Shown: piece by piece, positions 13,819 through 39,400 of the stretch | How the letters are laid out: every line of letters starts with the position of its first letter | Numbering within the stretch: position 1 is the stretch's first letter | Source: a bacterium | GTDB taxonomy: Bacteria > Hinthialibacterota > Hinthialibacteria > Hinthialibacterales > Hinthialibacteraceae | Reading direction: 5' to 3' | Length of the DNA stretch: 47,481 nucleotides | Assembly (NCBI GenBank): GCA_963663405.2 | Contig: CAXXSM010000085.1 | Span: 1 to 47,481 of the forward strand | Translations under genes and position numbers: made by a program | Notes under the pieces: model-generated | What the model was told of the DNA's origin: nothing | Databases searched by the model: none | What the model saw: only the letters and a program-made list of their open reading frames with translations

Positions 13819-15101
13819 TTATGATGGTGCGACCATACTCATGAGTAATCCACAGAGCCAGGCTCCGTACGTTCCCAGCGCGTAGCCGACCACCGCCACT
13901 AATACACCGACTGGGGCGAGCGCCGGATGAAAGGCGCTGGCCACGATGGGGGCCGAGGCCGCGCCGCCGATATTCGCTTGGCTGCCGACGGCGAGGCAGA
14001 ATACGGGAGCCTTGATCAAACGGCCTACAATCAGCAGCAGCAAGGCGTGAATGCTTATCCAGATGACTCCGACGATGAAGAGATCCGGTCTTTCCATGAT
14101 CGACATCACATCCATTTTCATTCCGATGGACGCGACGAGAATATAGAGAAACACCGAGCCGATCCGGGACGCGCCGACGCCTTCCAAGCGTCTTGCGGGA
14201 GTGAAAGAGAGTAGCAATCCACTGGTTGTCGCGATGACAACAAGCCAGAAAAAGGAACTGGTTAGACTATATTGATCTAACGCGGGACAGGTGGATTCGA
14301 TCCATACGCTAAGGTTATCCGCGCCCATATGGGCAATGGCGGTTACGCCGAAACCGGCGGCCAGCACATTCATTGTATCGGCCAGGGTGGGGATTCGTTC
14401 GATTTGAGACTTATAGTCTTGCATCTTTTTGCGTAGATGTTCTATATCGCTTGTATCGGCTTGATTGAAACGGTCAATTGTTTCGGCGTTTCCGGCCATC
14501 AGGAGCAGGATCGCCATCCAGACATTCGCTACGATATGTCCACGGTGACAAGAGTCGCAAATATATCATCTCCGACGTTGAACACTTCTTTCATGGCGGC
14601 TTGATTGGCTCCCCCGCCGATCCAGCTGCCTGCGACAGTGGTTAATCCACGCCATATCGCATCTGGGCCTTGTCCTCCAACCGTTTCGGGGCTGACCATA
14701 GAGACAAGCAGGATCGCCAGTGGGCCTCCAAGGATGATTCCTGTTGTACCGGTTAGGAACATGATCAGCATTTTGGGCCCAAGCCGGATCACCGCTTTCA
14801 GATCAATGCTCAAAGTGAGCAGCACAAGACAAGCGGGCAGCAGGTAGCGCGACGAGACGAAATAGAGGTTTGAATGATCGGCGGAAATGATATTCAAGTT
14901 GGTCAACACCGCTGGGATGAAATAACAAAGGAGAAGTGAGGGGACGTATTTATAGAAAGTCTGGAATAGGCGCTTTTGGCTGGAGGAGGTGTGGAAGACC
15001 AGCGCGAGAATGACGATTAAGATACCGAGTGTGACCGCGTCGTTGGTGATGTATGGGGTGGATTCATTCAATGTGGATGTCTCCGGTGTATGATTAAACA
15101 A
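13819..15101 (-). pseudogene. DUF819-family membrane protein, frameshifted near 14530
   Basis: ORFs 14529..15101 and 13819..14517 are the two halves (GSWIGGGANQAA; SQANIGGAASAP). Adding one base in GAC ATA ^TC GTA GCG AAT GTC TGG ATG restores a continuous VDIxVANVWMA reading. Confidence 0.8.
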
Positions 15102-15132: not shown

Positions 15133-15306
15133 ATTTTAAGATTATTGTATTCGTTATGGTTGTGAAAGGTTATCGGACGCCGGGACGAAGGCAAAATTAT
15201 AACAGGTCACTCTATCCATACCTGCTATGTTGGAGTATATAATATATTTTTCGTTTATCGCTTCGCTAGATCAAGCATACATATAATTATGAATAGGAGG
15301 AATCCA

Positions 15307-20527: not shown

Positions 20528-23500
20528 ATGGTGAATTTAAAAGTTCTTTATAATCGAATGATGAATTCCAGGCTTTCTATGGGGCTCACGTGTATATTTT
20601 TGTTACTGGCTCTATGTAAAATCGTGCAGGCGCAGAACGCAATTCTTTTAGGCGATCTTAACCATGATGGTGTCATTGATACACGGGACGCATTGATGAT
20701 CATGCGTGCTGTGGAAGGGCTCGATACATTGACAAATGAGGATTTCGAAACCGCGGACGTGTATCCTATTCCGGGTTTAAATGGGCGCGCTGTTGGAGAT
20801 GGCAGCGTGACGGAAGATGATGTGCTGCGGATTCTCTATCAGGCGGCTGGTCTGCTTCCTACGGGGGAATTGACCGGTGATTATTCGGATTCATCCCCCA
20901 CGATCTCCGATTTCGAACCTCAGAGCGGTTCGGCGGGAACTGAGGTGACTATCATTGGGAGTAATTTTGTCAGTAGTACGCCGGGTGAAAACGCGGTGTT
21001 TTTTGGAGATGTGGAAGCGGAGATTATTCGTATTACAGGAACAGAGATCACTGTCTTGGTTCCCGATGGCGTACATTCGGGGCAGATTATCATTCGCACG
21101 CCGGGTGGAACCACTGTCAGCGGGGCGGATTTTGACGCGGTTGAATTGCGCGAGGGCGTATTGAACGTAGGAACCGTCTTTGATCCACAGGATTTCACGG
21201 TCGTGAGTAAGTATGGTGAGACGGACATTCAAGACGCGAACGGCGGTTTCTCCATTCCCGTGGCGATCGATAAGATCACAATTGTTGGAGCGGTTCCCAA
21301 GGGGGAGGAAGAAAATTCTTTTCTTCTTATCCATATCCCAGAAGAAGAAGAGACCGAACCGGAATCGATTGTAATCGATGAACATACGACAGCGGTGGCG
21401 GTAACTTACTTCAATCCTTTTTTTATTACGGATAATCTGTTCGCGGCGCGGATGTTGATGGAGACGATGGAGACGGTTCCTGAAGTGCAGGCGCTGGCGG
21501 ATGTGATCGCGGCGCGGTATCCACAGACGCCGGAAGCATTGGATGACGAGGAGGTCGAGGCGGCGTTGATACAAGCGGTCAACGCGGTGATGGAGGCTCT
21601 TCCGGAAGAGTATACGATTGATCTCGATACGGTGGATTTTTATGCGAAAACCAGAACTCCCGCCCGGTATGATTCGGATGATTTTCGCACGGCGAAACAA
21701 ACCTGGTCCCCTTCAACTCTCGATCGATGGTCGCAGCTGAAGAATCCGTCCGCTTCAATGTATGGAGGTGGGGGAGATACTGTGGCTGTTAAGACCGATA
21801 GTTTGGATTTGGATTATATAAAGCTTAAGTATGATAGGGCGAGTCATTCCATTTTTCCAAAACGGTCTCTGAATTATAGTCCTCTCGATTGGCTGGTGGC
21901 GCTCTACAAGGTTGATCCCGTCAGTATGCCGAAAGGGATAGGGGAATCGTATTTTACCTTGAAGAAAAGACGCGTTCGGCTGACGGGATATGAAAAATCA
22001 GGTGTTGTTGAAGCGAATCTGTGGACCGCCAAAATAGATGTTTTAGGGCAGGTATTGAAATTGGCGATTGATGGGATCCAGGGATTTCTCGGACTCGCCA
22101 GTAAACAAGGGATCGCTTTGCAGGGCAAGGAAGATTCAATTTACATGCTGCGCGCCTACAGTGGCGTGTTTTGGGATCACCTAAAATTGACGGGTGATGA
22201 CAAAGACGCCATTCCCGCTTTCCGGGATGGGCCTCGGCTTCATAATTACGCCGTCGCGATGAACGTGGTTCTCGTGCTGGTCGATGTCTGGGCCATCGTT
22301 TCCGAGAAAGAAGGAATGGTTCGTGACGCGATGAAAAAGGGATTGCGGGAAGCGTATAAAGTCATGACCCGTGAATATGGGGAAACCGGTATCCAAGGGA
22401 ATTCAAATACAAAAGACATTTTAAAAATCGTGGTGAAAGTCGTGGTTTCGGCGAGTAAAAAAATGGCCGACGCATTCGCTCGTGAAGGACTGAAGGCCGC
22501 GTCAAAAAAAATGAGTGGGGTTTTGCAGAAAATTCTTGGGAAAGCTGTGCCCATCTTGGGCATATTAAAAAAGATCTCCAAAGTGGGGAAAGTGGGCGAA
22601 CGTATTCTTGGTATGACAGGTTATGTCTTTTATCTCGACTATTACTTCGATCTTCCTATAGGGATTCCTCGGTATAACGTTGCGCGGGGACCCACGCCCT
22701 TGGAAGTGGGTATTGTCATGGTCGGTGATCCCTTCATACCGGTCATTGAGTCGATATCTCCAACGACGGGGGGGTATGGAACGGTCGTTACAATCAATGG
22801 CAGGAATTTTGCGGTGAACGCCAAGGATAATGTCGTGAAATTTAATGATATTAAAGCGGAAGTGTTGTCATCGGATAATCAGGTAATCCTCAAGGTCCGG
22901 GTTCCTGATGGTTTGCCGCGGGGCCGCGCGTCAATCACCGTGGATACTCCAGCTTCCATGAAATTAGGACGTAACAATGATTTTAATGTCGATCCGGCGC
23001 CTGTTATTGAAAGTGTTTCTCCTCTCGCTGGATACGGCCCATCAGGGAACGCGCCCGGGGAACCATTTGCGGGGAATCTTGGTATGGAAGTGACGCTGAT
23101 TGGTTATAATATGCGGCCAATTGGAACGGAAGAAGAATATAAAGTTTTCTTTGGAGATACGGAAGCGGAAATCGTCAGTCAATCCGCTGATAAAGTCGTC
23201 GTTCGGATTCCAAAAACCACGGCTGGCGCCAAAGACCTCTTCATTCGCCGGAACAGTGATGGCAGGGAGAGCAAGCATTTTCAATTTACGATATGGGGGC
23301 GGCCTGTTGTGGACAGTATATCGTCCCGAAATGTGATGGCGGGAGAACTCATTGTTGTTAAAGGCGCGAATTTTACTGACGCCCGTGTGCAGATCGGCGA
23401 TACATTCGCGTCCATTCAACCGTCAGTGGCGGAAGACGAGTTGCATATCATCATGCCAAACATTGGGGAGGAAGGAGATTCGTTCCCATTGAAGATATGG

Positions 23501-26500
23501 AATCAAGCGAATCAGACCACTTCCGGCACAATTACGAGAAAGGCGGGAGTGAAGGTTCCAGAATTAACTGCGTTGCCAAGAGGGATGGAGATACCCGTCC
23601 AAACCAATAGTTCGACGGTCAAACCAGATGGGATAATCTCCCTGGCTGAAGCCGTGGCTTTCGCCAATGGATCAAGCAATCCATTCGAAATCGGCCAATG
23701 GGATAACGCGAATGAGAAATGGACTCTTACATATAATCAGATTAAGTTGCCCGCATTGGATGAAGATGGAAATTATGTGAGGGATGAAGAAGGCAATATA
23801 AGTTATTATTATGAGTGGGTTCAGAGCGCGACGCAAAAAGAAGTGTTGGACATTAATAATGGCGGCGCTCATGAAACGCGTGAGGTTTATCATAAGAATA
23901 AATACCACTCAGACATTATGAATGGCACAACAATCACTCAGCTGTCATATATTATGGATATCGATGCACAGCAACAACAGGAAGGGGACTTTGTTAATTT
24001 TATCGCGGACGCCGATTTTAATTATAAAACTTTTAATGGTGGACTTTACGCGGACCGGATTTATCCAGCCACAGACATGAAAGTGTTTAAACTGACGTCG
24101 CTGCAGCTGGGTGAACAGGATACGCTTGCCTTTTCCGGCCGGACGATTGAACTCGAGGGGAGTTTAATCGCGCGAGATAGATGCATGGTCGAAGCCGATA
24201 CGATTCGGCCGAAGCAATCGATACTGATCGAACAGGCGAATCGTGTGATTATCTATTCCGGCACAATTGAGGGCGCCAATTCGGATGGAGTGAAGATTCG
24301 CAGCGGATATGGGAATACCATTTACAGTAAGATTCAACAATGCGGCGGCGAGGGTGTTTCCATCCAGTATGGGGGAAAGAATAATATCGATACGAAAATC
24401 ATATCATGCGGCGGTCATGGTGTGGAAATTACCAACAGCGATCAGAACGATATTGTTGTGAATGCGACGTCCTGTACGGGATCAGGTATATCTATCGATA
24501 GTGGAGACTCCAACCAAATTACTCTGAACGCCAATCAATGCGGCGGTGATGGGATTACAATTTTAAAAGCGAAACTGAATCACGTGACCATTGGAGAGAT
24601 CCGAAGTTGTAATGCAGGTGTTTATCTAAATGAATGTGAACAAACCACTCTGAACAATAAAGGCGGTATCATCCGTGATTGCCGCACAAATGGAGTCACA
24701 ATTGAAAAAGGATGGGGCAACTCAATCAACGCGTATCGTTCCTATCGGATTTTCAAAAACAACGATCATGGAATCGAGATTATCAATTCTTCGAAAAACT
24801 ATATCCGGGACGCCCAAATCGCGGGGAATGAATGCGGGATTGTGATTCGTGGAAGCGATAGTTACGAGAATACGATTTCCAGCTGTTATATTGGCCGATT
24901 TGTCGATCCCGATGAATCTGATGGCCCCTATTACAACACGTATTCTACGCTTGGAAATCGTAGTCATGGAATGTATATCTATAGCGGGGCGAATGATAAT
25001 GTTGTGGAATGGATCGAATCGTCCGCCAATCAAGGGCACGGTATTCTTTTAGCAGGATCTGGCGTGACATTCAATGATCTTTACCGCTGCTCGTTTGGGA
25101 CTCCACGAGGCGGCGCGCTTTTCGAGGAAACTATCAATGGAAACAGTGGAGATGGGGTTCGGATTCAACAAGGCGCGTCAGATAACACAGTCGTGGAATG
25201 TTATATACATGGTAATTCTCAAAATGGGATTACTTTGAAAGACAGTGGAACTAGTGATAACTGGATTAATGAATGTGAAATTGGCGTTGATTTCAGTACC
25301 GATTCGCAAGGGAATAAAGTCTTTGCTGCAAATCGCGGGTACGGTATTGAAATCTTGTCCGGCGCGGCATTGAACGATATCGATACGTGTGAGATTGCCG
25401 TGAATGATAAGGGAGGGATTCTTTGTAATGGATTGAATGGATCGTCCGAGTATGAAAATTCAACGCCTCTCATTCATGATTGCGTCCTCGGCTACGAACG
25501 CGATCCCTTATACTTTGGAAAACGCGGCTCACGCGCAATGCAGGCGGCTGCGGGATCCGTTTTTGGGATTCATATCAAAAACAGCCAAAATCTCCTGCTC
25601 GCGCGGAATAAAATCTACTATTTCGACACGGGTTTGGTTCTCTCCGGCTCGACGCGGCAGTTGCGGTTGGAAGAGATTGAAGCACGGAAAAACGATAAAT
25701 TCGGTTTCTATTTAGAAGGAGCGATCGGAATTACATTTACAGACTTTGTCACACGGAATAATACTTTGGATGGCGTTTTCGCGCAGTATTGTTCTGATCT
25801 TCAATTTATCGAGAACGGTCTTACGCAATATAATGGCGGGTCCGGCATGTATTTCGACGCGTGTGACACCGTGACGCTCTCCCAAGTTTCGATGGGATTG
25901 GAGAATGGACAACATGGTCTCTCGATCGATAACTCCAGTGGGTTTACCGTCCAAAAATGTAATAGTTATCAAAACGATGAACATGGTGTCTTGATCGCCA
26001 ATGGATCGTCAAATATTCAGCTGCTGCAAGGCGGATACAGTGACAATGTAGGGATTGGATTGAAAATTGTTGACTCGAGTGATGTTGAACTCGTTGGATA
26101 CTTCTCCATGTTCTTCAATCAAGGGGGTGGAGTGTACATCGAAAATTCAGGGGATATTACGATTGGAAAAGGCAACCAAGGTGGGATTATCGATACCATT
26201 GAGAATCCCTGCCTCGTGATTACCGGTGAAGATACCCAAAACATTTACGTGTATTCCAACACACTTGCGGATTGTGAGGAATTCGCGTGCGTTCAGATTG
26301 ACGGTGGTTCGAATATTTGGATTGGAGGTTGGATACCGGGCTGGGGAAATTATATCGGCTCGAATGAGAATGTTGGCATTCTCGCCGAAGGCGTGGTGAC
26401 TAACTTATATATTATCAACAATATCATTGGAGGATCGGCCGCCGCGCCCGATGGGACGATGACCGGGAATTCTATCGGTGTTTTGTTGCGGAATGGACTC

Positions 26501-28882
26501 TGCGGCGCGACGATCAGTGAAAATATAATTCAATTCAATGAGTCACATGGAATCCATCTTCTCAACAGCGCTTGCAGCAATCTGATTACGACAAATACGA
26601 TTCAACAAAATGGCGATGACGGGATTCGTGTGGAGGGGATCGCGTCGATTTATAACCGAATCACCCGGAATTCCATCACTCGTAATAATGGAAAAGGAAT
26701 CCAGTTGATATCGAGTGGGAATGGTGGTATCGCCGCGCCGGTGATTGATGAGATTTCTTATGGAGGCAAGGGGGCGTCCGGTGTGATTCATCCTGTGCCC
26801 CCCAAAGGTTCTTTGGTTGAATTGTACGCGGATGAAGCGGACGAAGGCCGTTCACTGCTTGGAATTGCGCCTGTTTATGGCAACAACTTTTATGTGAATG
26901 TGGCCATTCCGGTCGGGATGAATCTGCATGCGATTGCGATTCATCCGGATGGGAATACGTCGGAATTCGGGCCGGTCATTCTAGCGGATCAGTACGAAGC
27001 CGGTTTTGTGTTTACATCGGATATGGGGACCGCGCAGGATATCTATCTAAGTGACCCGCGCAGCGATATGCCCATTCAATTAACAGACGATCCCTCTAAT
27101 GATTTTGATCCCCAAGCGGCGGTGAATGGGGATGGATATTTATTTGTTTCGGATCGAAGCGGGAACACGGATTTATGGCTGCAATTGTTTGACTCTTCAG
27201 ATCCCGTTCAACTGACCTCGAATACAGCGCCGGATTACGATCCGGATTGGTTGAGTGAGTTGGGGAAAGCCGTATTCACATCGGAGCGGGATGGGAATCC
27301 TGAAATCTATGTGATGGAGACCGCGGCGGACGCCGGGGAAATTGGTGAGTTGACCCTCACAGAAGGCTCTGAAGCGTTGACTTCCACTGCTGAAACAGCC
27401 GGCGACGCTTATGGAATGCTGCTGAATTCCGGCAATGGGAATATTACAAAACTGATGTTCTACATCGCGCAGGATCCCGCGCCCTTTGAATGGGGGATCT
27501 GGTCTGTTGAGAACGATAATCCTGAAACGGCGCTCTTAACCGGCACAACGACTCCAACCGATATTGGCTGGCATACTGTGGATATCCCACCGCTTGAAGC
27601 GCCGGAATGGTTTATTATCACACTCACATTTTTAGAGGATCAACGTCCCCAGATCGGTGTCTCAACTTCCTCCCAATTCTTGGGGTATTACCGTTTCAGC
27701 GCCGCAGTGGATATGTGGCTGAATATTTTTGATACTCCTATTATGATGAAAGCGTTGGTTGAACCGTTCCCACCTTTACGGGTGACGGATCATTCCGCAG
27801 TGGATCGGTATCCAGCCTGGTCGCCGGATGGAAGTAAGATTGCTTTCGCGTCCGATCGGGGTGGATCGATGGATATCTGGGTGATGAATGCGGATGGAAG
27901 TAATCCCCAGCGGTTGACGGACGGTGAGGGAGAGAATACGAAACCGGCTTGGGCGCCGGATGGCTCCTCAATTGCTTTTGTTTCAACGCGGAGTGGAAAT
28001 CCAGAAATTTACCGAATGGATGTGAATGGAGAAAACGTGGTTCGTTTAACTCAGAATGAAGAAGAGGACACAGATCCTGTGTGGGGCGCCTCAGGGAATT
28101 ATCTTCTCTTCGCGTCGAATCGGGATGTCGGTTATGAAATTTACCTGCAGACACTGGCTGGTTCTAGCGCGAAACGGAAGACCTATACAAACGTGGATTC
28201 CATCCAGCCGGATTGGGCGTCATCGGAATTTCTGCTCCGTGCGGAGGAAGCGCTTTCTACCGCCGAAGAAGAGGAACCGCTTGCGAAGCGGCGGTCCCGC
28301 CCCCTCGCGGATGGGGATATACAACTCGCTGTCTCTGATTCGCAAGCTGGATCCGGTCAAACCGCTGAAGTGTCTTTGAATGTCACGGGCGCGGATCAAC
28401 TAGGCGCCGTCGCGCTGGAATTGGCGTATGATCCAACCATTCTTCGTCTGATCGATTCCCCAACGGTTGGAATCAGCGATCAATCCTTGTATGTGATGAA
28501 TCCGGAACTGTATCCAGACGATCGTGGATTGTTGCGGTTCCATTGGGTGCGCGCGTCGGGATTGAGTGGAGATACGGACGCGTTGAATCTGAAATTTGAG
28601 GTCAAAGAGGAACCGGACGCGTATGAGACGGCGATTCAATTGATCTCCGCCGAAGCCTATGATACAGAAGTCAATCCAGTCAACATCAATGTTATCGATG
28701 GTTTGCTTACGATTACGAAACTGATTCTCGATGTGGATACTTGGATCGATCTGTTTTACCTCGCAAATGAATGGGGGCAGGAAGGAACCGGGTTGAAAGC
28801 GGACTTTAATTTCGATGAGAGGTGTGATGATGAGGATTTGGTGGAATTTATCCGTCTCTGGAAACGTTCGCGGGAGCAATAA
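20528..28882 (+). CDS. Large secreted multidomain surface protein: dockerin, IPT/TIG domains, right-handed beta-helix, PD40 propeller, cohesin, C-terminal dockerin-like
   Basis: Signal peptide; GDLNHDGVIDTRDA...GDGSVTEDDV dockerin; IPT starts PTISDFEPQSG, PVIESISPTTG, PVIESVSP, PVVDSIS; long Gly/Asn/Ile beta-helix region; PAWSPDGSKIAF repeats; cohesin-like GQTAEVSLNV..LAYDPTIL; terminal ADFNFDERCDDEDL..F..W. Confidence 0.85.
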   Translation: MVNLKVLYNRMMNSRLSMGLTCIFLLLALCKIVQAQNAILLGDLNHDGVIDTRDALMIMRAVEGLDTLTNEDFETADVYPIPGLNGRAVGDGSVTEDDVLRILYQAAGLLPTGELTGDYSDSSPTISDFEPQSGSAGTEVTIIGSNFVSSTPGENAVFFGDVEAEIIRITGTEITVLVPDGVHSGQIIIRTPGGTTVSGADFDAVELREGVLNVGTVFDPQDFTVVSKYGETDIQDANGGFSIPVAIDKITIVGAVPKGEEENSFLLIHIPEEEETEPESIVIDEHTTAVAVTYFNPFFITDNLFAARMLMETMETVPEVQALADVIAARYPQTPEALDDEEVEAALIQAVNAVMEALPEEYTIDLDTVDFYAKTRTPARYDSDDFRTAKQTWSPSTLDRWSQLKNPSASMYGGGGDTVAVKTDSLDLDYIKLKYDRASHSIFPKRSLNYSPLDWLVALYKVDPVSMPKGIGESYFTLKKRRVRLTGYEKSGVVEANLWTAKIDVLGQVLKLAIDGIQGFLGLASKQGIALQGKEDSIYMLRAYSGVFWDHLKLTGDDKDAIPAFRDGPRLHNYAVAMNVVLVLVDVWAIVSEKEGMVRDAMKKGLREAYKVMTREYGETGIQGNSNTKDILKIVVKVVVSASKKMADAFAREGLKAASKKMSGVLQKILGKAVPILGILKKISKVGKVGERILGMTGYVFYLDYYFDLPIGIPRYNVARGPTPLEVGIVMVGDPFIPVIESISPTTGGYGTVVTINGRNFAVNAKDNVVKFNDIKAEVLSSDNQVILKVRVPDGLPRGRASITVDTPASMKLGRNNDFNVDPAPVIESVSPLAGYGPSGNAPGEPFAGNLGMEVTLIGYNMRPIGTEEEYKVFFGDTEAEIVSQSADKVVVRIPKTTAGAKDLFIRRNSDGRESKHFQFTIWGRPVVDSISSRNVMAGELIVVKGANFTDARVQIGDTFASIQPSVAEDELHIIMPNIGEEGDSFPLKIWNQANQTTSGTITRKAGVKVPELTALPRGMEIPVQTNSSTVKPDGIISLAEAVAFANGSSNPFEIGQWDNANEKWTLTYNQIKLPALDEDGNYVRDEEGNISYYYEWVQSATQKEVLDINNGGAHETREVYHKNKYHSDIMNGTTITQLSYIMDIDAQQQQEGDFVNFIADADFNYKTFNGGLYADRIYPATDMKVFKLTSLQLGEQDTLAFSGRTIELEGSLIARDRCMVEADTIRPKQSILIEQANRVIIYSGTIEGANSDGVKIRSGYGNTIYSKIQQCGGEGVSIQYGGKNNIDTKIISCGGHGVEITNSDQNDIVVNATSCTGSGISIDSGDSNQITLNANQCGGDGITILKAKLNHVTIGEIRSCNAGVYLNECEQTTLNNKGGIIRDCRTNGVTIEKGWGNSINAYRSYRIFKNNDHGIEIINSSKNYIRDAQIAGNECGIVIRGSDSYENTISSCYIGRFVDPDESDGPYYNTYSTLGNRSHGMYIYSGANDNVVEWIESSANQGHGILLAGSGVTFNDLYRCSFGTPRGGALFEETINGNSGDGVRIQQGASDNTVVECYIHGNSQNGITLKDSGTSDNWINECEIGVDFSTDSQGNKVFAANRGYGIEILSGAALNDIDTCEIAVNDKGGILCNGLNGSSEYENSTPLIHDCVLGYERDPLYFGKRGSRAMQAAAGSVFGIHIKNSQNLLLARNKIYYFDTGLVLSGSTRQLRLEEIEARKNDKFGFYLEGAIGITFTDFVTRNNTLDGVFAQYCSDLQFIENGLTQYNGGSGMYFDACDTVTLSQVSMGLENGQHGLSIDNSSGFTVQKCNSYQNDEHGVLIANGSSNIQLLQGGYSDNVGIGLKIVDSSDVELVGYFSMFFNQGGGVYIENSGDITIGKGNQGGIIDTIENPCLVITGEDTQNIYVYSNTLADCEEFACVQIDGGSNIWIGGWIPGWGNYIGSNENVGILAEGVVTNLYIINNIIGGSAAAPDGTMTGNSIGVLLRNGLCGATISENIIQFNESHGIHLLNSACSNLITTNTIQQNGDDGIRVEGIASIYNRITRNSITRNNGKGIQLISSGNGGIAAPVIDEISYGGKGASGVIHPVPPKGSLVELYADEADEGRSLLGIAPVYGNNFYVNVAIPVGMNLHAIAIHPDGNTSEFGPVILADQYEAGFVFTSDMGTAQDIYLSDPRSDMPIQLTDDPSNDFDPQAAVNGDGYLFVSDRSGNTDLWLQLFDSSDPVQLTSNTAPDYDPDWLSELGKAVFTSERDGNPEIYVMETAADAGEIGELTLTEGSEALTSTAETAGDAYGMLLNSGNGNITKLMFYIAQDPAPFEWGIWSVENDNPETALLTGTTTPTDIGWHTVDIPPLEAPEWFIITLTFLEDQRPQIGVSTSSQFLGYYRFSAAVDMWLNIFDTPIMMKALVEPFPPLRVTDHSAVDRYPAWSPDGSKIAFASDRGGSMDIWVMNADGSNPQRLTDGEGENTKPAWAPDGSSIAFVSTRSGNPEIYRMDVNGENVVRLTQNEEEDTDPVWGASGNYLLFASNRDVGYEIYLQTLAGSSAKRKTYTNVDSIQPDWASSEFLLRAEEALSTAEEEEPLAKRRSRPLADGDIQLAVSDSQAGSGQTAEVSLNVTGADQLGAVALELAYDPTILRLIDSPTVGISDQSLYVMNPELYPDDRGLLRFHWVRASGLSGDTDALNLKFEVKEEPDAYETAIQLISAEAYDTEVNPVNINVIDGLLTITKLILDVDTWIDLFYLANEWGQEGTGLKADFNFDERCDDEDLVEFIRLWKRSREQ

Positions 28883-29110: not shown

Positions 29111-29119
29111 TGGTATAAT
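29111..29119 (+). promoter_or_regulatory. Candidate extended -10 promoter upstream of the riboswitch
   Basis: TGGTATAAT (TGn-TATAAT) about 75 bp upstream of the aptamer. Confidence 0.35.
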
Positions 29120-29192: not shown

Positions 29193-29281
29193 ATATTGAG
29201 TAAAAGTCGAACCTGTTGTGAAGCAGGGGCGGAAAGCCACGGATCTCAAGTCGGGAGAAAGCCGGGTTGCCTAAACAATAT
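29193..29281 (+). ncRNA. GEMM-I (c-di-GMP-I class) riboswitch aptamer
   Basis: G-TC-GAA-CCTGTT-GTGA(GNRA loop)-AGCAGG-GGC-GG-AAA-GCC-ACGGATCTC..GAGAAAGCCGGGTTGCC follows the GEMM-I P2/J2-3/P3 layout. Possible P1 extension ATATTG(29193)/CAATAT(29276). Confidence 0.88.
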
Positions 29282-29302
29282 AAGGCGCCCGGATTTTTTT
29301 TT
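29262..29302 (+). terminator. Riboswitch expression-platform terminator
   Basis: CCGGGTTGCCT...AGGCGCCCGG stem followed by A and nine T; its 5' arm is the 3' strand of the aptamer. Confidence 0.85.
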
Positions 29303-29415
29303 GTGTAATATTTTGTTGTATATATTTTTATTGAGGAGGTGTGACAAAAGCTGGTTTTATTTGTTGTTTTATATTAATAAGTATAGTGATTTACTGATTG
29401 AAAGGAAAGAGAAAA

Positions 29416-30378
29416 ATGAGGAAATGTATTAATCTATCCGTAATTGGGATCGTCGCGGCGATGATTGTTATCGCTTCACCTTTGGCTTCCGCAGTTGTTA
29501 TGGTTCCTTTGATTGCGGGTCAATTTATGGATGTTGGATCAGTCACTGTAGATGATGACGGTGAATTTTTGTACGTAAAATTTGTTGTTAACGAAGGAGT
29601 TGAATTAATTGAGACGCACGTATATGTTGGTCAGGGTGAACCAGAATCTTCAGCTCCTGGCCGATTCCCATATAAGAATCAAGGGGATTCTTATAAGATT
29701 CCTTTAGGGGATCTTTCTGGAACGATCTACATCGCGGCGCATGCCGTTGTTGATCTCTCTCAGGTTTGTGTAGATTGCATTCCATTTCATGCCACACTTC
29801 GTGCATACTGCCCGGGCTTTCTCGGTTATTTGGATGTAGAGATCAACGATTCTCCAATGCAGAAGGCGTGGTGTGTTGATACAGATCATTTGATTAATTG
29901 CTACGAAATACAAAAATTATACGGGGATGTGATTGGTTATTCCAGTTACTCGCCTGAAGGCGCAGCTTTGATAGATATTCCTGAGAATATTGGCGCGTTA
30001 AATTACTTACTGAACCACGACGATGGCTATGAGATCAATGATATTCAACGAGCGATTTGGGGACTGATTGACGATTTCCCTGAACAAGGCCTATTGTACG
30101 ATTATTTTGGCGATAATGAATGGAAACCGAATCAGTTTTATCATCCTGATATTGTAAACGCCTTGGTGAATGAAGCATTAGAGAATAATGATTATATACC
30201 CGAATGTGGAGATATTTATGCGGTAGTTGTTAAAATACTCAATGTCGCTGTAGAAAAGCAAATCATTGTTATTGAATGTAATGTTCCCTGCGGAGAAGAG
30301 ACCGCCTGGGGAGATGGCTATCGATTTGGGAAGAAAAAGAACTGGGCGATGTGCTTTGAGTACATTATTGGTCAGTAA
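29416..30378 (+). CDS. Secreted protein with putative Cys-Gln thioester (TED-like) domain
   Basis: ATG at 29416 after AAAGGA; signal peptide ending ASA; WCVD, LNYLLN, IQRAIW and KQIIVIE motifs inside a beta-rich domain (PLIAGQ..PGRFPY..IAAHAVV / ETAWGDG..NWAM.FEY). Confidence 0.75.
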   Translation: MRKCINLSVIGIVAAMIVIASPLASAVVMVPLIAGQFMDVGSVTVDDDGEFLYVKFVVNEGVELIETHVYVGQGEPESSAPGRFPYKNQGDSYKIPLGDLSGTIYIAAHAVVDLSQVCVDCIPFHATLRAYCPGFLGYLDVEINDSPMQKAWCVDTDHLINCYEIQKLYGDVIGYSSYSPEGAALIDIPENIGALNYLLNHDDGYEINDIQRAIWGLIDDFPEQGLLYDYFGDNEWKPNQFYHPDIVNALVNEALENNDYIPECGDIYAVVVKILNVAVEKQIIVIECNVPCGEETAWGDGYRFGKKKNWAMCFEYIIGQ

Positions 30379-30451: not shown

Positions 30452-32800
30452 TTATTCGATCGTCTTTTTATCAATAACCTGCGCCAGGCTGTTATAGGCC
30501 GTAAGACGGCATATTTTTGAATCGAATTCCAATATAAGAAAAACCTCGATTTGATCGTTGCCGGTTATTCTCTGGGACGCGTTGGATGACAATCCTCCGT
30601 AATCGACCGATCCACCACTGCCCGCCGTGATGTAATGGATCCCTTTGATCGGCGCCAGCCGTTCGTATATGTGGTTGTGGCCTTGCAAGACGAGAGAGAC
30701 GTTATGTTTTTGGAAAAGGGATTCCAATTTTTGTCTGATTCCCATATTTAGGGGAGAGTCTCTGGCAGTAGAGTACAGTGGATGGTGCAGGGCAATGATT
30801 TTCCAGGCCGACTGGCTTTCTCCCATGACTTGTTCAAGCCAATTTATTTGATCGGGATCCGGTTCGGGCTTATCGCCGTAGAAAGAGTTTGAATCCAGGA
30901 AGAATACTTCCACCAATCCATCGCCGAATGTCTTTGTGTAATAACGCCGGTCTTGCATGTGGAAGAGTGGATAGGTGAGTTCAAATGATTGAAGACCGTA
31001 CATGTAGTCGTGATTGCCCAAGACGGCGTAAAAAGGAACGCCGGTTTTCAGCAAACTGGCGAATGGTTTCTCGAATTCTCTTCGCGCCACAGCGGTTGGA
31101 TTCCCGATATCCGCTTCTCCGCTGAAGAGATTGTCACCTAGCATGAGTATACCATCATCAAAGCTCTTCGCGCCGTAGACTAAACGCATTGCTGAGACGA
31201 CAGAGATATGACGGGATCTCCCTTTTCCCTTTCCTGTGTCACCCAAGACAGCTAGCCGGACGACGTGATGATCTTTCCGGGAAGGTTTGCACACAAAGAG
31301 ATGCCGGTCATAAGTGAGTTTGGTTTCTTGATATGAGATATCCGCCGTTTTGAGTAATGTCCGCAGTGTTTTAGCCCGTCTCTCTTTATCTAAAATAAAA
31401 ACATGGGCGTAATTTGAGGATTGCAATCCTTGAATTTCCTCTGTTATATGTTCTGGCAGGATATAGAACGGATACGGTCTCTCTTTGGTTGTTACGCGTT
31501 CCACGAGGGACTGATCATAGAAGCCCAGGCCTTCCAGATGATCTTTCACGGCGATGATTTCATAAGTCTCATTCGGCAGGTGGCTTTGAATCAAAGTATA
31601 TAGGGCGCGCATATCCCGTTCTGATGGAACACAATAAGCCATATACCATTTGAATCCCAAAAGAAAGATGATCCAAAACGTCAAATAACAGACTCCTCTT
31701 AGAGAGAAATGCAATTGGTTTCCTCTCCATGCGTTGTTTGAAGATTGGAAAAGACGAAGACGGGAAGCCGTTATTGCGAACGCGGGAAAAATAGGGAGCG
31801 CATAGAGTGGAAGTCTGGAACTGGCCAGACAGAGAACGAGAATGGAGATGGTGATCCAAAGCGTTAGAAGAAGATTGGCAGGAATGCTGAGGCGCTTTCT
31901 CCAAATAGCGCGGTCGAATAAATCTTTTCTATTCCGCCAAAGCGCAGGCCACCAGGCAAGGGACCAAGGGAGTGTTCCCCCAAGAATCACCGGCAGATAG
32001 ATAAAGATTTCGTATAGCTCCGTATTGCGGTCGTATTTTGCTGAAACGGTCCGCCCTACGACTTGATTATCCCAGAAATAGGCCAACGCGCCGGGGAATT
32101 CATTTGCAATATAAGCATACCAGCTGAGTCCAATCGCGCAAAAGAGGACAAAACCCGGGATTGCCCACCACGTGAGAAACCAGCGCAGCGCGCGCCTTTG
32201 AATGATAAGGTAAAAAAACATAACGCCGGAGGGAATCAAGGCGGCGGGCCCTTTCGTTAGAAAACCTAGACCGAAGGCCGCGCAGAGGAGTAATTTCCAG
32301 AATCCCACATGCCGCGCGTCTGGTTCGACGCTCTTCCAAAAGCAGAAAAAAGACGCGGTTGTCCACAAAGCGAGTGGAGTGTCGGGAGTGACGATATTGG
32401 CCGCTGTGAAAGGGAAAAGCATAGTGGCATAGATCACGCCCGCCAGCAATCCTTCGCGCTTCGAGTACATTGATTGCCCCAATAAGAAGACCAGTCCAGT
32501 GGTCAGTATGTAACAGAGCGCATGAAAGAGGCGCGCGCCCCATTCATTATGTCCCAGCAGCCACAATCCCGCCGCGGAGCCCCACAAGCTCAGTGGTGGT
32601 TTATCCAACCAAGGTTCATACTGGAGACGGGGCGTCAGATAATCTCCTGTGTCCACCATCGCTTGAGCAATACAGACATAGAAGCCCTCATCCGGTGAGT
32701 ATATGCCCCGCGAGCCTTGAAACGCGAAAGCCAACATGAATAAAGCAGAGATAATGATAAGTATTTCAGAATAGTTCTTCGTTTGAGTGGTCATATGCAT
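30452..32800 (-). CDS. ArnT/PMT-like membrane glycosyltransferase fused to C-terminal metallophosphoesterase
   Basis: N-part: PDEGFY, DKPPL, EWGARL, GFLTKGP, LPW, YALP with many TMs. C-part: GDTG, GDN, GNHD, HHP, GHNH calcineurin-like motifs. Confidence 0.9.
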   Translation of the reverse strand: MHMTTQTKNYSEILIIISALFMLAFAFQGSRGIYSPDEGFYVCIAQAMVDTGDYLTPRLQYEPWLDKPPLSLWGSAAGLWLLGHNEWGARLFHALCYILTTGLVFLLGQSMYSKREGLLAGVIYATMLFPFTAANIVTPDTPLALWTTASFFCFWKSVEPDARHVGFWKLLLCAAFGLGFLTKGPAALIPSGVMFFYLIIQRRALRWFLTWWAIPGFVLFCAIGLSWYAYIANEFPGALAYFWDNQVVGRTVSAKYDRNTELYEIFIYLPVILGGTLPWSLAWWPALWRNRKDLFDRAIWRKRLSIPANLLLTLWITISILVLCLASSRLPLYALPIFPAFAITASRLRLFQSSNNAWRGNQLHFSLRGVCYLTFWIIFLLGFKWYMAYCVPSERDMRALYTLIQSHLPNETYEIIAVKDHLEGLGFYDQSLVERVTTKERPYPFYILPEHITEEIQGLQSSNYAHVFILDKERRAKTLRTLLKTADISYQETKLTYDRHLFVCKPSRKDHHVVRLAVLGDTGKGKGRSRHISVVSAMRLVYGAKSFDDGILMLGDNLFSGEADIGNPTAVARREFEKPFASLLKTGVPFYAVLGNHDYMYGLQSFELTYPLFHMQDRRYYTKTFGDGLVEVFFLDSNSFYGDKPEPDPDQINWLEQVMGESQSAWKIIALHHPLYSTARDSPLNMGIRQKLESLFQKHNVSLVLQGHNHIYERLAPIKGIHYITAGSGGSVDYGGLSSNASQRITGNDQIEVFLILEFDSKICRLTAYNSLAQVIDKKTIE

Positions 32801-33445: not shown

Positions 33446-36400
33446 TTAGTACAGCGACCAATTCTCGACCGGTGTTTCACGTTCGCCTATGTTTACATCG
33501 ATTGTATAACTGTGCGCGCCGCTTGATGATAAGACGGTCAATTCTAAAGTATAGATCCCTTCCTGCAGTCCGAAGACGTTCCATACGCCAAGAGGGCCGT
33601 CTAGAACAGGCGCGCCGCTGGATGCGATCTCGGTCGTCACTTCCGGCTGAATGCCTGCGCCATAGGAAAGGTGATATGATTGAAATCCGGGCGCGTAGGC
33701 TGTGCCAGTTATTTCGATATCCTGGTTGATGTAATCACCGCGAATTGGATCGGCGATATACGCCATAGGCCAATCGCCGGAGAGCCGGTAGAACTCATCG
33801 GGGAAGAACGAATAGCCCGATGATGAACGGACGCGGATGAAGACTTTTCCGGAGTAATTCTCCGTCTCGATCGAGACGGTTTCATCCGTCGTTTCTCCAT
33901 TGTTGGAGCCGCCCATTCCATTGTGATCCGCATTATATATCTCGAGTCGATAATCGGTGGGGAGATGGCTGAGAAGTAGATCCATCTGACCGGGTCCGCT
34001 GAAAACTGTCCAGTAATAATCGTAATCACCGCCATGAGACAAGTAGGATTCCTCTACTTGCGTAGGCAGCAATGGCACGGCGGATTCCCAGTCATTGTCC
34101 GGTTCATGCCGGTCTACGCCCGGTGTGATCGTTACGAGCAGCGTGTATGGCTGAAGGATGTTGTGACCGGATGAGGAACGAACACGCACATAGTACTCAC
34201 TCGACTCAAGAACATCGGCGATGATCTGTTCGTCCTGCGTGCCGCTGTTGACGGAGGAGCCGATGCCGGAATGATCCCATTTAAAAAGTTCAAGCCTGTA
34301 GTCGGCGGCTAGATCGGTCAGATCCACTTGGATGCGTGAAAAGGCGTCCGCGTGGAAGATGTAGTAATCATAATCGCCGCTGGAAGAGATCGTGGCTTGG
34401 AGCGCTACTCCAGGCGTGATTGGTTTTGCTGAACGCCAATCATCGTTTGGCTCATATGGATCGATTTGTTCAGTGAAATCAACGGTCAATGTGTAGCGTC
34501 CAGTTGGTCCGGCGGGTGTTCCTGATTGATTGCGAATCCGGATATACCATAAGCCCGGCGCTGTGATATCCGCCACCGCGTGTTCATCGAAATTCAAATT
34601 ATTCGCGGAACCAGTAATCCCCGTGCGCCAGGGACTGTAGATATCGAGGCGGTAATCGGAATTTTCAGGAATGTCCGTCAGGTCCGCTGTGAGTTGTCCA
34701 TAGGTTGGAATCTGCAGGGCGTACCAATCTTCATCCGATCCATCGGCGATGGAGCCTTTAATCGTGCTTGGATAGGAAATACCCATCGCTTCCTGATACC
34801 AGCCATTTGGTTCCATTGGATCGGTTTCCAAATTGGCGCCGGCGTTGTCCACTTGGATTGTCACACGTGTTTCATTCACACGCCCTGCGGCTTGGACTGT
34901 TAGGCGCAGCGTGTATACGCCATCGCTTAAAACTGTCGTGTCCCAGGCGCCGATTTCACCCCTAAACGCGGGCGCCGCATTGGGCAGCGCGGTCCAGGAC
35001 GTGGGCTGAGATCCGGAACCGTATTCTAATGTAACCGCATCGACGCCATTGGGAGACGCGGCGATGCCCTGAATGCTGAGAACGCCGTTGACGACACTGT
35101 CATCATAGAGTGAGAAGATACCGGAAAGCGGATCGGTGGAGGGGAATGTTCCCGTCAATGTATAGAGCTGCGCCGCGTTCCATTCTCCACCGATTACGAG
35201 GTAGTAGTAGCCTGGTCCCAGCGTGTTGACGAGGCGTTCGCTGGTTGTGTTGTTATTGTCGTATCCCATGATCCAATTCATATTGGTACCATAAAGATTC
35301 AGGTTGAGATTGAGATTCAGATTTGTCAGATCCAATCTTGTTAGGCCTTCTTCGGGGAGATAGAAGGTGAACACATCGTTGTCATCGCTGAAATCACGCG
35401 CGCCTTGGAGGGGGATACCAGAATAGAGCGGTGTGGCGTTTTTCCACCATTCGTCGTTCGGTTCCCACGGATCGGCGCCTTCGAAATAATCGGCGAGGAG
35501 GGTATAGGGCTGTGTTGGATCGGATTCTCCACTAGAACTGACGATGGCGTATATTCGTTCATTCAAGCCGGGATCGATGATGATTCGTTCGGGATTCAAT
35601 CCAGCGTTATCAGAACTGGTGATCCAATTGAGATTGCCATTATAGATGTTAATCCGGTAATTGGCTGGGAGATCGGAGAGTGTGAAGACGATCCTGCCGG
35701 GCCGTATTGCGTTGACATAATAGATATCGCTGTCGTTATACCAGCCGATATAGTCTTGGACGGGAACGCCGGGCGTCAATTCACGCGCTTCCTCCCATCG
35801 GCCGTCTGGTTCGGCGGTGTCTGTCGAGGGTGTCCATTCCACGCGCAGCCAGTAGAAGTCAATCGCTTCATACCCGCCCGAACTATTAACGATGGCATAA
35901 TAGCGAGCGGGATAAGAGGGGGTTAATGTGATCATTTCATCCCGCCAGCCCTGATTGTCGGAGCCGGTGATCCAACCCAGATTGCCATTATAGATATTCA
36001 TGTTGGCGTTGAATCTAAGATCGGTTAGATGAAAAACGAGTTTGCCCGGCCCCGGCGTATCGACGTAGTAAACGTCCTGATCCCCTTCAGGGAAGAGCGC
36101 GAGGGCGTTGGAATTCGGGAAGAGCGGGTACGCGTCGTTCCATGTGTTGTTCGGTTCGTACCGGTCGACCGGTGTTGTGTCGAGGACGGTGGTATTGATT
36201 GTGAGTGATCTCGTTTCGGTTTCCGTCTGGACCTCTAAAATCAGATAGTACGGTCTGGATTCAACGGCGCTTGTATCCCACCTGCCCAGTTCTCCACGCG
36301 CTACCGGTCGATTGCCGGTTGTGATAACAGTTTTCGCGTCTGGGTCCGCCATCGGCGCGTAGGAAAGGGTGTAACTCTGAAATCCATCGCCTACCGCCGT

Positions 36401-39400
36401 GCCGGTAATCGAGATCCCTCCACTGATCGATTGACCGGTTCTGGGATAGATGAAATCCAAGAAAAGGTCATGTGGCATGAACGAGGTAGTGAGACGATAT
36501 GGTTCATGCACGTCGTATCCATCAGAGGATCGAACGCGGATGAATACCGTGCCCCCGTAAGAGACGATTGAGTAGACTTCTTCGTCCCATACGTCTGAAT
36601 TGTTGGAACTCCCCATTCCATTATGATTGTAATCGAAGACTTCTAATCGATAATTCTGCGGCAGGTCGTAGAGATGAACATAAAGTTCACCCGGATAGGG
36701 TGTTGTAAGGCGGTAGTAGTCGTAATCGCCGCTGGTGGAGATATACGATTCGACTGTTTCACCGATATCGATGGGTGTAGCGTTGGCCCAGTCATTGTTC
36801 GGTTCGTTTGTCTCAAATCCAGGACGCCAATCGGCGCGCAACGTGTAAGGTTCCACCGGAGAGGCGCCGCCGGAACTTTCACGGACGCGGATGTAATAAA
36901 TCCCCGGCGCGGGCACATTCACGATCGTTCTTTCATCAAGTTGACCGGAATTGTTAGAGCCGCCCACTCCATTGTGAGAGAAATCGAACACTTCCACCCG
37001 GTAATCCCGTGGCAGATCGGTCAGTGTCACATCAAGCGTCCCTGGTTCGAATAATTCTACTGTGTAGTAATCGTAATCCCCGCTATAAGTCATAAAAGCT
37101 TGGATGTCGGTATCGAGAGGAATCGGGCTGGCGTGAGCCCAGTCGTTGTTGTTTTCGTATACATCTTCGGCGGGTTCGAATACGATGGTGATGGTGTAAG
37201 GAGCGTCTACACCCGCCGCGTTCCCGCTCTGATTTCGAACAAAAGCGTAATATGTTCCCGGTTCTGTAACGGCCGCGTAGACATATTCATCGAACGTGTG
37301 ATTGTTCGCCGATCCGCCGATGTTTTGCTGGTAAAGGTTATAGAGATCCAACCGGTAATCGGAGGGGAGACCGGTCAACTGTGCCCGCAGCGCGCCCATC
37401 CCCCGGATATCGAACCGATAATAATCCCCGTCGGAGTTATCGCCTATGAACGATTGATTGTGATAAAAAAGTAAAATGGGCGTGGCGGTTAACCAGCTAT
37501 AGTTTGGTTCATATGTGTCCGCGCCGGTTGCGAGGGCGTTGTCGAGAGTGACAGTAGTGGTCGCCTCTGTCACTTCTCCACCGGTTCCCATTGTCCGCAG
37601 GCGGAAGGTGTAAACGCCGTCCGGCACAGGATTCGTTCCCAATACGCCAAGGACATCATCCACGACCGGTTGAGTTAGAGAATTGATCTGCGTCCATGAA
37701 ATGGGCGCTGTACCGGCTCCATACTCAAGAATCGCGCTTGCGAAATTCGTACCCGACGCGGCGCCATGCACGACAATCGAGCCATTGACGGTGGAACTGT
37801 TTGGAGGCGCGGTGATCATGGCGATTGGCTGTTGACCGGGGTATGTGACGCGAATTGTGTATGGACTCGTGAAATCGTAGTTATCGCTGTCCACGGCGAG
37901 ATAGTAAACGCCGGGATCGAGTGTGCGGACAATGAGTTCATCTTCCGTTCCGCCATTCCACGAACCAGTCAACCACGAGAAATTATTGTCATATAGCGAG
38001 AGGCCGAAATCACCGGGCAGGTCTGTTAACGTAGCCCGTATTTCACCTGCGGCGGGCATTTGGAAGATGTAGAAATCAGCGTCGGATTTAGAAGAGAGAT
38101 ACGATTGCAGAGCCGCGCCGGATTGAATGGGGGTGGCGTGCTCGAAGGTGTTGTTTGGTTCAAATGTGTCGTGTCCTTCGATGAATCCAATTGTAAGATT
38201 GTAAGGTTTTAACGCGCTGAATTCGCTTCCAGCGGATGAAACGATCACATAGTACCGGCCCGCTTCGCTGATATCCCAATTGATACGTTCGGTAAGGTTT
38301 CCGCTGTTATCAGATCCTGTCAGCCAATTCAGGTTTCCATCGTATAAATTGATCCTGAAATTACCGGGCAGGGAAGAGAGCGTGATTCGCATGCCACCGA
38401 ACGATGGCGCGTCAAAGGCGAAGATATCCTCATCACCGGGGTAACTGAGATTGGAGAGGATCGGTGTATTCGCGGGCACGGATGGGGCGGTTGGCCAACT
38501 GTTGTTTGGTTCGTGTGTGTCGTTTCCTTGGCTCCATGCGGCTTCGATCGTATACGACGCGAATGGATTGGGAGTCCCGCGTGAAGAAGCGGCGATCGCG
38601 TAGATGATTTGCGCTTGGCCGCTGTTAATGATCACGGATTCTTCCGTGAGATCGAGATTGTCCGAACCGGCCCACCAATTGAGATTTGCGTTATACACGT
38701 TGACTCTATAATCCGCAGGCAGTCCTGTCAGCCGGACATCACACACACCCGGGCCGGGGAGAACGATCCGGTAGATATCCTGATCGTTATCCGGATTGAT
38801 GTAGGCCTGCAACGGTTGGTTGAGGGGAAGCGGCGTGGTTGGCTCCCAGCCGTTGTTCGGCTCGTATGGATCATCCGGTGGCTCTGTGACAAGAGTTACG
38901 TTCACTTCGTCTACTGCGCTTTCTCCCGTGCCGGTGAGCACTGTCAGACGAATCACGTAGGCGCCCGCCGCAAAGCCAGTTGTGTCCCAGACTGCCAACT
39001 GATTGCGATTGACCGGTTCGGTTTGCGCATCTCCAATGGGCGTCCATGCGTCGGGTTGGTTCGCGGGCCGGACGTCTATGTTATAACTCGCGAACGCGTC
39101 CGCGAGGGCGGTTCCGTAGATACGGATTGAGCCCCCAACCGTGCTGTTATTGCGTGGACTGTCAATATTCGCGGCCAGCGCGAAGGAGACGTAGGAAAGA
39201 GTTAATGTATACGGCGCGCGCATGTCGTAAGAGCCGTCTGATGAACGGACGCGCACGAAAATCGTTCCTTTAGCGATTTCCGCCGTGACGGTTTCATCGG
39301 CGGCGCCGGAATTGTTTGACGAACCTTTTCCATTGAGGTTGCCGTCGAATAATTCCAACCTGTAATTGCTGGGAAGATTGGTCAGGGACGCTGTCAAACT

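Follow-up and report, generated by a model that had tools for sequence, protein, structure and literature searches.

The 47,481-nucleotide stretch of bacterial DNA analysed here (hereinafter the window) is contig CAXXSM010000085.1, positions 1 to 47,481, of the assembly GCA_963663405.2, which derives from an uncultured lineage of the Hinthialibacterota. In it, a gene for an apparently secreted protein of 320 residues (P0001; open reading frame (ORF) 29416–30378) is preceded by a leader containing an aptamer of the class I cyclic di-guanosine monophosphate (c-di-GMP) type, the 3′ side of which doubles as the 5′ arm of an intrinsic terminator. We posit, as the probable reading of this locus, that the leader is a class I c-di-GMP transcriptional ON riboswitch and that it controls a secreted attachment or cross-linking factor with a predicted thioester domain. 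The features described in the original prediction are borne out, and its interpretation is supported overall. Our confidence is higher for the first part of this reading, namely a c-di-GMP-type ON riboswitch, and lower for the second, namely a functional thioester adhesin. All features described below lie on the forward strand unless the reverse strand is indicated.

The Rfam covariance models (CMs) of 4227 families were run over the whole window on both strands at their gathering scores (cmscan). The sole match is found at 29197–29275, where the models of the c-di-GMP-I type belonging to the clan CL00126 align. The top model, RF03167 (c-di-GMP-I-GGC), is matched across its full length (model positions 1–80) with 59.4 bits against a cut-off of 59 and an E-value of 1.3e-11, and one further, lower-scoring CL00126 model also lies above its own cut-off. 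Thus, the GEMM-I-shaped aptamer claimed in the original prediction, which had proposed an Infernal search as a check, is recovered as a significant covariance match. The complete aptamer (29193–29281) has an extended P1 helix reaching past the Rfam match: 29193–29200 pair with 29271–29281, with 29273–29275 bulged, such that 29193–29198 form six Watson–Crick pairs with 29276–29281 and 29199–29200 pair with 29271–29272. This extension also explains why the aptamer had been predicted to start at 29193. The P1 helix encloses two adjacent hairpins. The first (stem 29212–29217 with 29222–29227) bears a GNRA tetraloop at 29218–29221 in both the CM alignment and the pair list. The second, P2 (29235–29268), is formed according to the pair list by 29235–29238 with 29265–29268, 29240–29242 with 29262–29264, and a distal helix of four base pairs (29244–29247 with 29255–29258). 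In the CM register the distal helix includes one non-standard pair; the four-pair register is that of the original prediction. When folded alone, 29193–29283 has a minimum free energy (MFE) of −25.3 kcal/mol and takes the form of P1 and the two hairpins. The element at 29193–29281 thus displays the GEMM-I architecture, in which P1 is combined with a pair of neighboring hairpins, the first of them capped by a GNRA tetraloop. A blastn search with the leader against plasmids returned three insignificant matches only (E 0.3–4).

The CM alignment is free of gaps across model positions 1–49, with the posterior symbol '*' throughout. It places G29206 (model position 10) at the equivalent of G20 of the Vc2 aptamer, in agreement with the base identified in the original prediction, A29233 (model position 37) at that of the ligand contact A47, and C29270 at that of C92. 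The same alignment sets C29230 (model position 34) and its partner G29261, which lies in the bulged AG before the 3′ strand of P2, as the equivalents of the interhelical Watson–Crick pair, whose numbering in Vc2 we take to be C44–G83. Vc2 is described as contacting its ligand via G20, A47 and C92 and as having an interhelical C–G pair (PMC4744006); in particular, G20 recognizes the Gα of c-di-GMP (PMC6140456), while C92 forms a Watson–Crick pair with the Gβ (PMC4744006, PMC6140456). The three contacts typical of GEMM-I aptamers (G29206, A29233 and C29270) and the interhelical C–G pair (C29230 and G29261) are all present in the window. Because the bases at these three positions match the Vc2 contacts, with a G at position 20, the pocket is the canonical c-di-GMP pocket. 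At its periphery, a U–G wobble (29207–29232) is found where the pocket-adjacent G21–C46 pair is expected. Hence, we read this element from its bases as a class I aptamer with a canonical pocket, in which peripheral features (this wobble and a shorter distal P2) slightly favor the variant model. An alternative register with A29205 at position 20 and G29231 at position 47 was rejected: it needs indels and consumes the interhelical C29230, whereas the CM alignment is gapless with a high posterior.

The overlapping intrinsic terminator hairpin (29262–29292), seen in the sequence and in the MFE fold, comprises a 5′ arm at 29262–29272 and a 3′ arm at 29283–29292, which form ten pairs with one bulged U (29268) and a ten-nucleotide loop, and it is followed by a tail of nine T residues (29294–29302). 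All 11 bases of the 5′ arm lie within the aptamer, where they constitute the 3′ strand of P2 (29262–29268), part of the pocket (29269–29270) and part of P1 (29271–29272); these are the 11 bases that had been quoted, along with the T9 tail, as both aptamer 3′ strand and terminator arm. The 3′ strand of P1 (29276–29281) in turn falls inside the terminator loop. Aptamer and terminator are thus mutually exclusive, with 29262–29272 common to both folds, which is the layout of an ON platform where the ligand-bound aptamer sequesters the 5′ arm of the terminator. The MFE structure of the full leader is the terminator fold (−37.6 kcal/mol, z −3.0), and none of 200 shuffles is as stable. Because the full leader prefers the terminator, termination should be the default state with the ligand needed for read-through; therefore, we interpret the element as an ON switch, as had been argued earlier from the overlap. 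A simple terminator scan did not report the riboswitch hairpin, as the loop limit of the scan (8 nucleotides) is smaller than its 10-nucleotide loop. The distance from the end of the T-run (29302) to the ATG (29416) is 113 nucleotides, close to the approximately 115 base pairs of the original prediction.

These features suggest the following course of events. The nascent leader (29193–29281) can fold as P1 plus two hairpins, to which c-di-GMP would bind via G29206, A29233 and C29270, locking 29262–29272 in P2, the pocket and P1. The locked segment would be unavailable as the 5′ arm of the terminator, and the polymerase would pass the T-run into the gene. When there is no ligand, the more stable terminator hairpin would form and transcription would end at about 29302. 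High c-di-GMP, i.e., the sessile state, would accordingly induce production of a factor for covalent attachment or cross-linking, and the predicted C153–Q282 thioester of P0001 (see below) may mediate covalent attachment to an amine-bearing target.

Regarding the start of this transcript, a pattern scan identified an extended −10-like element (TGnTATAAT) at 29111–29119, which implies a transcription start at about 29126, roughly 67 nucleotides before P1. This is suggestive only of transcription starting upstream of the aptamer from the 29111–29119 element. The same pattern occurs four times in the window, i.e., at 3387–3395, 4930–4938, 15196–15204 (reverse strand) and 29111–29119, and by the ORF list all four sites are intergenic and face the next gene. 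The count as such is not significant, with shuffles having a mean of 1.88 and 11 of 100 reaching four; the sites nevertheless offer hints that the organism uses extended −10 promoters. A strict two-hexamer promoter scan found nothing upstream of the aptamer.

The controlled protein, P0001, begins with what appears to be a Sec signal peptide (residues 1–26), which was read by eye rather than with a predictor from a basic N-terminus followed by a hydrophobic segment and Ala-x-Ala; the downstream secreted protein of the original prediction is thus in place. The remainder of the protein comprises a β-sandwich (residues 28–113), an inserted thioester-like domain (about residues 120–290) and closing strands (residues 294–317). 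Its AlphaFold (AF2) model, built on 41 sequences, has a mean predicted local distance difference test score (pLDDT) of 83.6 and a predicted template modeling score (pTM) of 0.71. When this model was compared by Foldseek to the PDB, all eight matches at E ≤ 1e-3 were to thioester domains, namely those of Cpa (4c0z) and SfbI (5a0l), with template modeling (TM) scores by target of 0.45–0.53. Among them, the N-terminal domain of Cpa from S. pyogenes (4c0z) is matched with an E-value of 1.2e-4 and a TM score by target of 0.51. Weaker matches include C. perfringens 5a0g and 5a0d, full-length Cpa, and FNE (5dcq). The model accordingly displays the β subdomain and three-helix core of the TED (thioester domain) fold. 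Cpa is itself one case of a thioester domain inserted in a CnaA/CnaB-type fold. More generally, CnaA/CnaB-type β-sandwich folds are reported to accommodate thioester domains among their inserts (PMC12617251), and because such folds host thioester inserts, the insert-in-sandwich layout predicted for P0001 has a precedent.

Three motifs are described for thioester domains: a strand motif with the Cys, a helical TQxx-hydrophobic-W motif that is not the bond former, and a weak strand motif with the bond-forming Gln (PMC4450167). P0001 contains all of them in this order, as C153, Q211/W215 and Q282. The candidate thioester Cys, C153 (codon 29872–29874), corresponds to the [YFL]C-hydrophobic-hydrophilic motif, and 40 of the 41 sequences in the alignment, which contains P0001, have a Cys here; in P0001 the residue before it is W, not Y, F or L. 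The helical TQxx-hydrophobic-W motif maps to Q211–W215 (codons 30046–30060), which sits in a helix of the model (residues 207–218), and has the Q conserved in 40 and the W in all 41 of the sequences. The Gln proposed to form the thioester is Q282 (codon 30259–30261), which is likewise conserved in 40 of the 41 sequences and lies in a weak hydrophobic-Q-x-hydrophobic-hydrophobic motif at the start of a strand (residues 283–289) of the model. Hence, we predict a C153–Q282 thioester bond. Q211 was also considered as the thioester Gln and rejected, since the Gln of the helical motif is reported not to form the bond (PMC4450167). If this residue was the one intended in the original prediction of a Cys–Gln thioester surface protein, the assignment needs to be moved to the Gln of the later strand motif (PMC4450167), here Q282. 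The thioester half of that prediction otherwise gains from the fold comparison, in which thioester domains account for every match at E ≤ 1e-3; the surface half fares less well, with no anchor, stalk or sorting motif found in P0001.

P0001 belongs to a sizeable family. Protein searches recovered 130 proteins at E ≤ 1e-3, P0001 included, nearly all of which are unnamed; the few named members come from Planctomycetota, Bacteroidota, Haloferax, and Asgard and other archaea. An ESM Atlas search likewise returned clusters of unnamed 'hypothetical proteins' only (best score 0.94). With the Pfam TED model (PF08341) at E ≤ 0.1, matches were obtained for 18 of the 41 sequences in the alignment, P0001 not being one of them. 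When 21 relatives were scanned singly, two exceeded the 22-bit cut-off of PF08341 (P0003 with 24.4 and P0113 with 22.8 bits), and the PF08341 matches in the relatives begin at the conserved Cys equivalent to C153. The archaeal representatives (proteins P0038, P0041, P0076, P0088 and P0089; loci L006, L010, L012, L013, L015 and L016) come from Haloferax, Promethearchaeota/Hodarchaeota, Bathyarchaeota, Methanosuratincola and Woesearchaeota, and the protein from Haloferax combines the Cys and Q/W motifs with a TED Pfam match (E 0.0011). A survey from 2015 reported thioester domains exclusively in Gram-positive bacteria (PMC4450167). The P0001 family, unseen by domain libraries, would take them beyond these organisms and suggests a distribution of these domains that is broader than that of the Gram-positive pathogens from which they were defined.

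The wider family also offers a genomic comparison for the control of these proteins. A search of genome contigs with an 11-sequence alignment (A2) yielded at least 71 loci totaling 369,128 bases, with a best identity of 33%. Applied to the 71 loci at gathering score, Rfam gave six matches and nothing else, all of them to class II c-di-GMP riboswitches, with c-di-GMP-II found in L019, L026, L032 and L049, and c-di-GMP-II-GAG as the best model in L041 and L066. All six aptamers (at about 2024–2380 of their loci) lie on the strand of the homologue, whose ORFs begin at about 2390–2507, and precede the start codon by 22–355 nucleotides (with the start in L066 read at 2402). The hosts are of the Chloroflexota type (Dehalococcoidales, Dehalogenimonas, Anaerolineaceae, and 'Chloroflexi/Chloroflexota') or belong to Humimicrobiia. 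In five of the six loci the conserved 3′ segment of the aptamer forms the 5′ arm of a hairpin with a U-rich tract after it, i.e., the same ON design as in the window; the tract is a clear U-run in L019, L026 and L049 and a weaker one in L032 and L041. The proteins of L019 and L041, the two that were compared directly, share only the scaffold with P0001, namely residues 1–127 (BLASTP E 5e-20 and 4e-13, respectively) and the closing strands (residues 294–318; E 1e-3 and 8e-5). The six class II homologues keep the β-sandwich scaffold with a different insert, and two of them show weak jelly-roll-type Pfam matches (F5/8 type C; Bac_rhamnosid_N). By a rough regular expression, thioester motifs are found in 34 of the 71 loci, none of which has a gathering-score riboswitch; the six riboswitch loci are among the other 37. 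The check suggested in the original prediction, a look for the same aptamer upstream of homologues, thus turned up class II aptamers in the place of class I among the loci listed. Taken together, the comparison supports c-di-GMP control of the scaffold family via an unrelated aptamer class, and does not reproduce the pairing of a riboswitch with a thioester domain.

Several observations weigh against the reading of the locus as a class I c-di-GMP riboswitch with a thioester-bearing attachment factor. On the RNA side, RF03167 rather than the plain c-di-GMP-I model scores best, with a margin of only 0.4 bits over its cut-off. Class I aptamers occur in none of the 71 loci listed, among which there is no close relative of the window aptamer or genome. 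Within the same set the combination of riboswitch and thioester is seen in the window only, and none of the six riboswitch-bearing homologues has the Cys and Gln motif pair by the motif regular expression. On the protein side, P0001 has no match in Pfam or NCBIfam even at E 10, and a profile of the 41 aligned sequences run against the PDB sequences found nothing below E 0.18. The TM scores to solved thioester domains are only moderate (0.45–0.56 by target length, with root-mean-square deviations of 4.5–7.6 Å), and the predicted pairing of C153 with Q282 draws on motif order and conservation. Finally, no anchor, stalk repeats, LPXTG motif, dockerin or other Pfam or NCBIfam domain was found in P0001, which leaves the term 'adhesin' unsupported by its architecture.

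The architectural points lie at the heart of the alternative that survives best, namely that the riboswitch is real and the protein is not a covalent adhesin. Under it, P0001 might have the fold without the bond, or use the bond for cross-linking of matrix or surface glycoproteins of the cell itself or for capture of a soluble substrate. We consider this unlikely, though deserving of more weight than the two other alternatives considered below. TIE-type surface adhesins combine a secretion signal with stalk repeats and an anchor, and of these P0001 displays, by eye, the signal peptide. Thioester domains have been described almost always on wall-anchored stalks (PMC4450167), and P0001 lacks LPXTG, stalk repeats, dockerin and other anchors. 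The P0001 family is also archaeal (e.g., Haloferax and Promethearchaeota). The neighbors of the gene are giant cohesin/dockerin surface proteins and a PMT-type glycosyltransferase, and because of these neighbors the matrix or the envelope is no less plausible as a target than a foreign surface. Set against this, the retention of the three thioester motifs, each in 40 or 41 of the 41 sequences aligned, speaks for a bond that is functional, and being switched on by c-di-GMP is characteristic of attachment factors, as reported for Bc2/Cap (PMC4933901) and CD2831/CD3246 (PMC11477304). For P0001, 'surface' protein and 'adhesin' are putative labels.

It is improbable, in our estimate, that the gene instead answers to another messenger through a variant-class aptamer, be it an orphan c-di-GMP-I-GGC element or a 3′,3′-cyclic GMP–AMP (cGAMP) or bispecific GEMM-Ib-like one. 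This alternative takes its strength from RF03167 scoring above the other CL00126 members, from the U–G wobble at the G21–C46 equivalent and from a distal P2 that is off consensus. Furthermore, the literature found by the name c-di-GMP-I-GGC, as far as its available portions go, lists the model only and gives no ligand data. The variant was reportedly defined by Weinberg et al. in 2017 in PNAS, and the 'GGC' of its name presumably stands for the bases at positions 20, 47 and 92. At the second of these positions, a conserved G in the GGC consensus (printed in upper case), the window has A29233 with a blank in the match line; it thus lacks the G that appears to mark the variant and, with G29206 and C29270, presents the canonical triplet. 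As for cGAMP, the GEMM-Ib RNAs that sense it are reported to have an A at position 20, whereas c-di-GMP binders have a G (PMC6140456), as does the window with G29206. Further, wild-type Vc2, with its G20, takes cGAMP only with an affinity of about 10 µM as compared to picomolar for c-di-GMP (PMC6140456). The likeness to Geobacter-type GEMM-Ib aptamers noted in the original prediction may still hold; the Rfam matches include no separate cGAMP model to set against it. The placement of homologues in other phyla under class II c-di-GMP aptamers also speaks for c-di-GMP as the messenger.

Least credible is a decayed or chance likeness to an aptamer next to a constitutive terminator (e.g., that of the upstream 2784-residue gene), with the promoter of the P0001 gene located after 29302: a score at the edge of the cut-off of the best model and the 113 nucleotides separating the T-run and the ATG would be compatible with it, but it is countered by the E-value of 1.3e-11 in the window, the conservation of every pocket and tertiary-contact base, the location of all 11 bases of the 5′ terminator arm inside the aptamer (a precise overlap that is the hallmark of expression platforms), the extended −10-like element upstream of the aptamer with no promoter-like site listed between 29302 and 29416, and the end of the upstream gene 380 nucleotides before the hairpin.

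Returning to the reading of a class I c-di-GMP ON riboswitch controlling a predicted thioester-domain protein, the loci with class II aptamers invite a broader proposal, which we advance tentatively and with less than even confidence. P0001 may represent an undescribed secreted 'scaffold plus warhead' family, in which a β-sandwich frame hosts interchangeable inserts (thioester in the window, other diderm-type phyla and archaea; jelly-roll/lectin-like in Chloroflexota), and which aptamers of unrelated classes might have brought under c-di-GMP control on two or more occasions (class I in the window, class II in Chloroflexota and Humimicrobiia). If this were true, Gram-positive bacteria would have no monopoly on covalent thioester attachment, and in uncultured phyla a c-di-GMP riboswitch would be a marker of attachment factors. 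The riboswitch also provides a functional label for a family that no domain library recognizes, indicating a product made at high c-di-GMP with probable covalent binding. Members of this family are found in candidate phyla and in archaea, groups about whose attachment biology very little is known.

The riboswitch locus is flanked by two giant ORFs that make for a neighborhood of predicted surface proteins. One of these (20528–28882) codes for 2784 residues with dockerin, TIG, β-helix/NosD, PD40 and cohesin domains, and the other (33446–43312, reverse strand) for 3288 residues with PPC and PKD-like domains. Convergent with the P0001 gene is an ORF on the reverse strand (30452–32800) that joins a PMT-type (dolichyl-phosphate-mannose-like) glycosyltransferase to a calcineurin-like phosphoesterase in a single protein of 782 residues. 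Elsewhere in the window, a c-di-GMP-II candidate, i.e., of a class other than the aptamer at 29197–29275, is seen at 5094–5178 with 38.2 bits against a cut-off of 53.5 and an E-value of 8.8e-5 for the window. It has a deletion of three bases in its conserved 3′ segment, and is located about 160 nucleotides after the −10-like site at 4930–4938 and ends 30 nucleotides before an ORF (5208–7151) for a protein of 647 residues with PD40 repeats. A DUF819 membrane protein is split between two reverse-strand ORFs in different frames (13819–14517 and 14529–15101), which match Pfam positions 1–153 and 161–378, respectively; these could be the outcome of a frameshift, a pseudogene or a sequencing error. 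For one neighboring gene in the window the best named relatives are from Candidatus Omnitrophota (71% identity) and from Hinthialibacter/Hydrogenedentes (Hydrogenedentota; about 60–62%).

The switching on of adhesins by c-di-GMP riboswitches is textbook knowledge: among the elements closest to the one described here, Vc1 of Vibrio cholerae is an ON switch, gbpA is the gene for a colonization factor, and Bc2 of Bacillus thuringiensis is of class I. Vc1 is reported to be located in the 5′ untranslated region (UTR) of gbpA (PMC4744006). The window aptamer is like Vc2 and Vc1 in its architecture, the three ligand contacts and the interhelical C–G pair. It differs from them in having a plain intrinsic terminator that overlaps its 3′ side, a U–G rather than a G–C pair beside the pocket, and GGC as the best model. 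Bc2 is described in the 5′ UTR of the gene for the collagen adhesion protein Cap (PMC4933901), so that a class I c-di-GMP riboswitch stands before an adhesin gene, as is proposed for the window. However, Cap binds collagen, its host is Gram-positive, and in the available portions of the source it is not described as a thioester protein (PMC4933901).

On the protein side, P0001 resembles the thioester domains of the streptococcal proteins Cpa and SfbI and of the C. perfringens TIE protein in its predicted fold and in the order of the Cys, the helical Q/W and the strand Gln motifs. It is set apart from them by an identity of 9–17% in structural alignments and by its lack of stalk repeats and LPXTG. 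The distribution of its family, including Planctomycetota, Bacteroidota and archaea, likewise contrasts with the Gram-positive confinement in the 2015 survey (PMC4450167).

The closest precedent for the locus as a whole is CD3246 of C. difficile, which contains a thioester domain and is governed by a class II c-di-GMP riboswitch (PMC11477304, PMC8610288). Both it and the collagen-binding CD2831 are described as being controlled by class II riboswitches and repressed at low c-di-GMP (PMC11477304, PMC8610288). CD3246 and the window are alike in that a c-di-GMP riboswitch turns on, in the window by our reading, a secreted thioester-domain protein at high c-di-GMP. They differ in the aptamer, which is of class II in the former and class I in the latter, and in the protein. 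CD3246 comes from a Gram-positive bacterium, is anchored to peptidoglycan, contains repeats, is cleaved by PPEP-1, and has a class 2 thioester domain recognizable by homology. In contrast, the window protein comes from an uncultured lineage and has 320 residues, no anchor that was found, no Pfam match, and a predicted thioester domain inserted in a β-sandwich. Given the CD3246 precedent, the link between c-di-GMP and a thioester protein is not new, and the mechanism itself is already established; the value of the present locus is that of a well-supported further example and an experimental handle. What is new is the class I aptamer, a predicted thioester family that extends beyond the Gram-positive bacteria of the 2015 survey and that domain libraries have missed, and the uncultured lineage.

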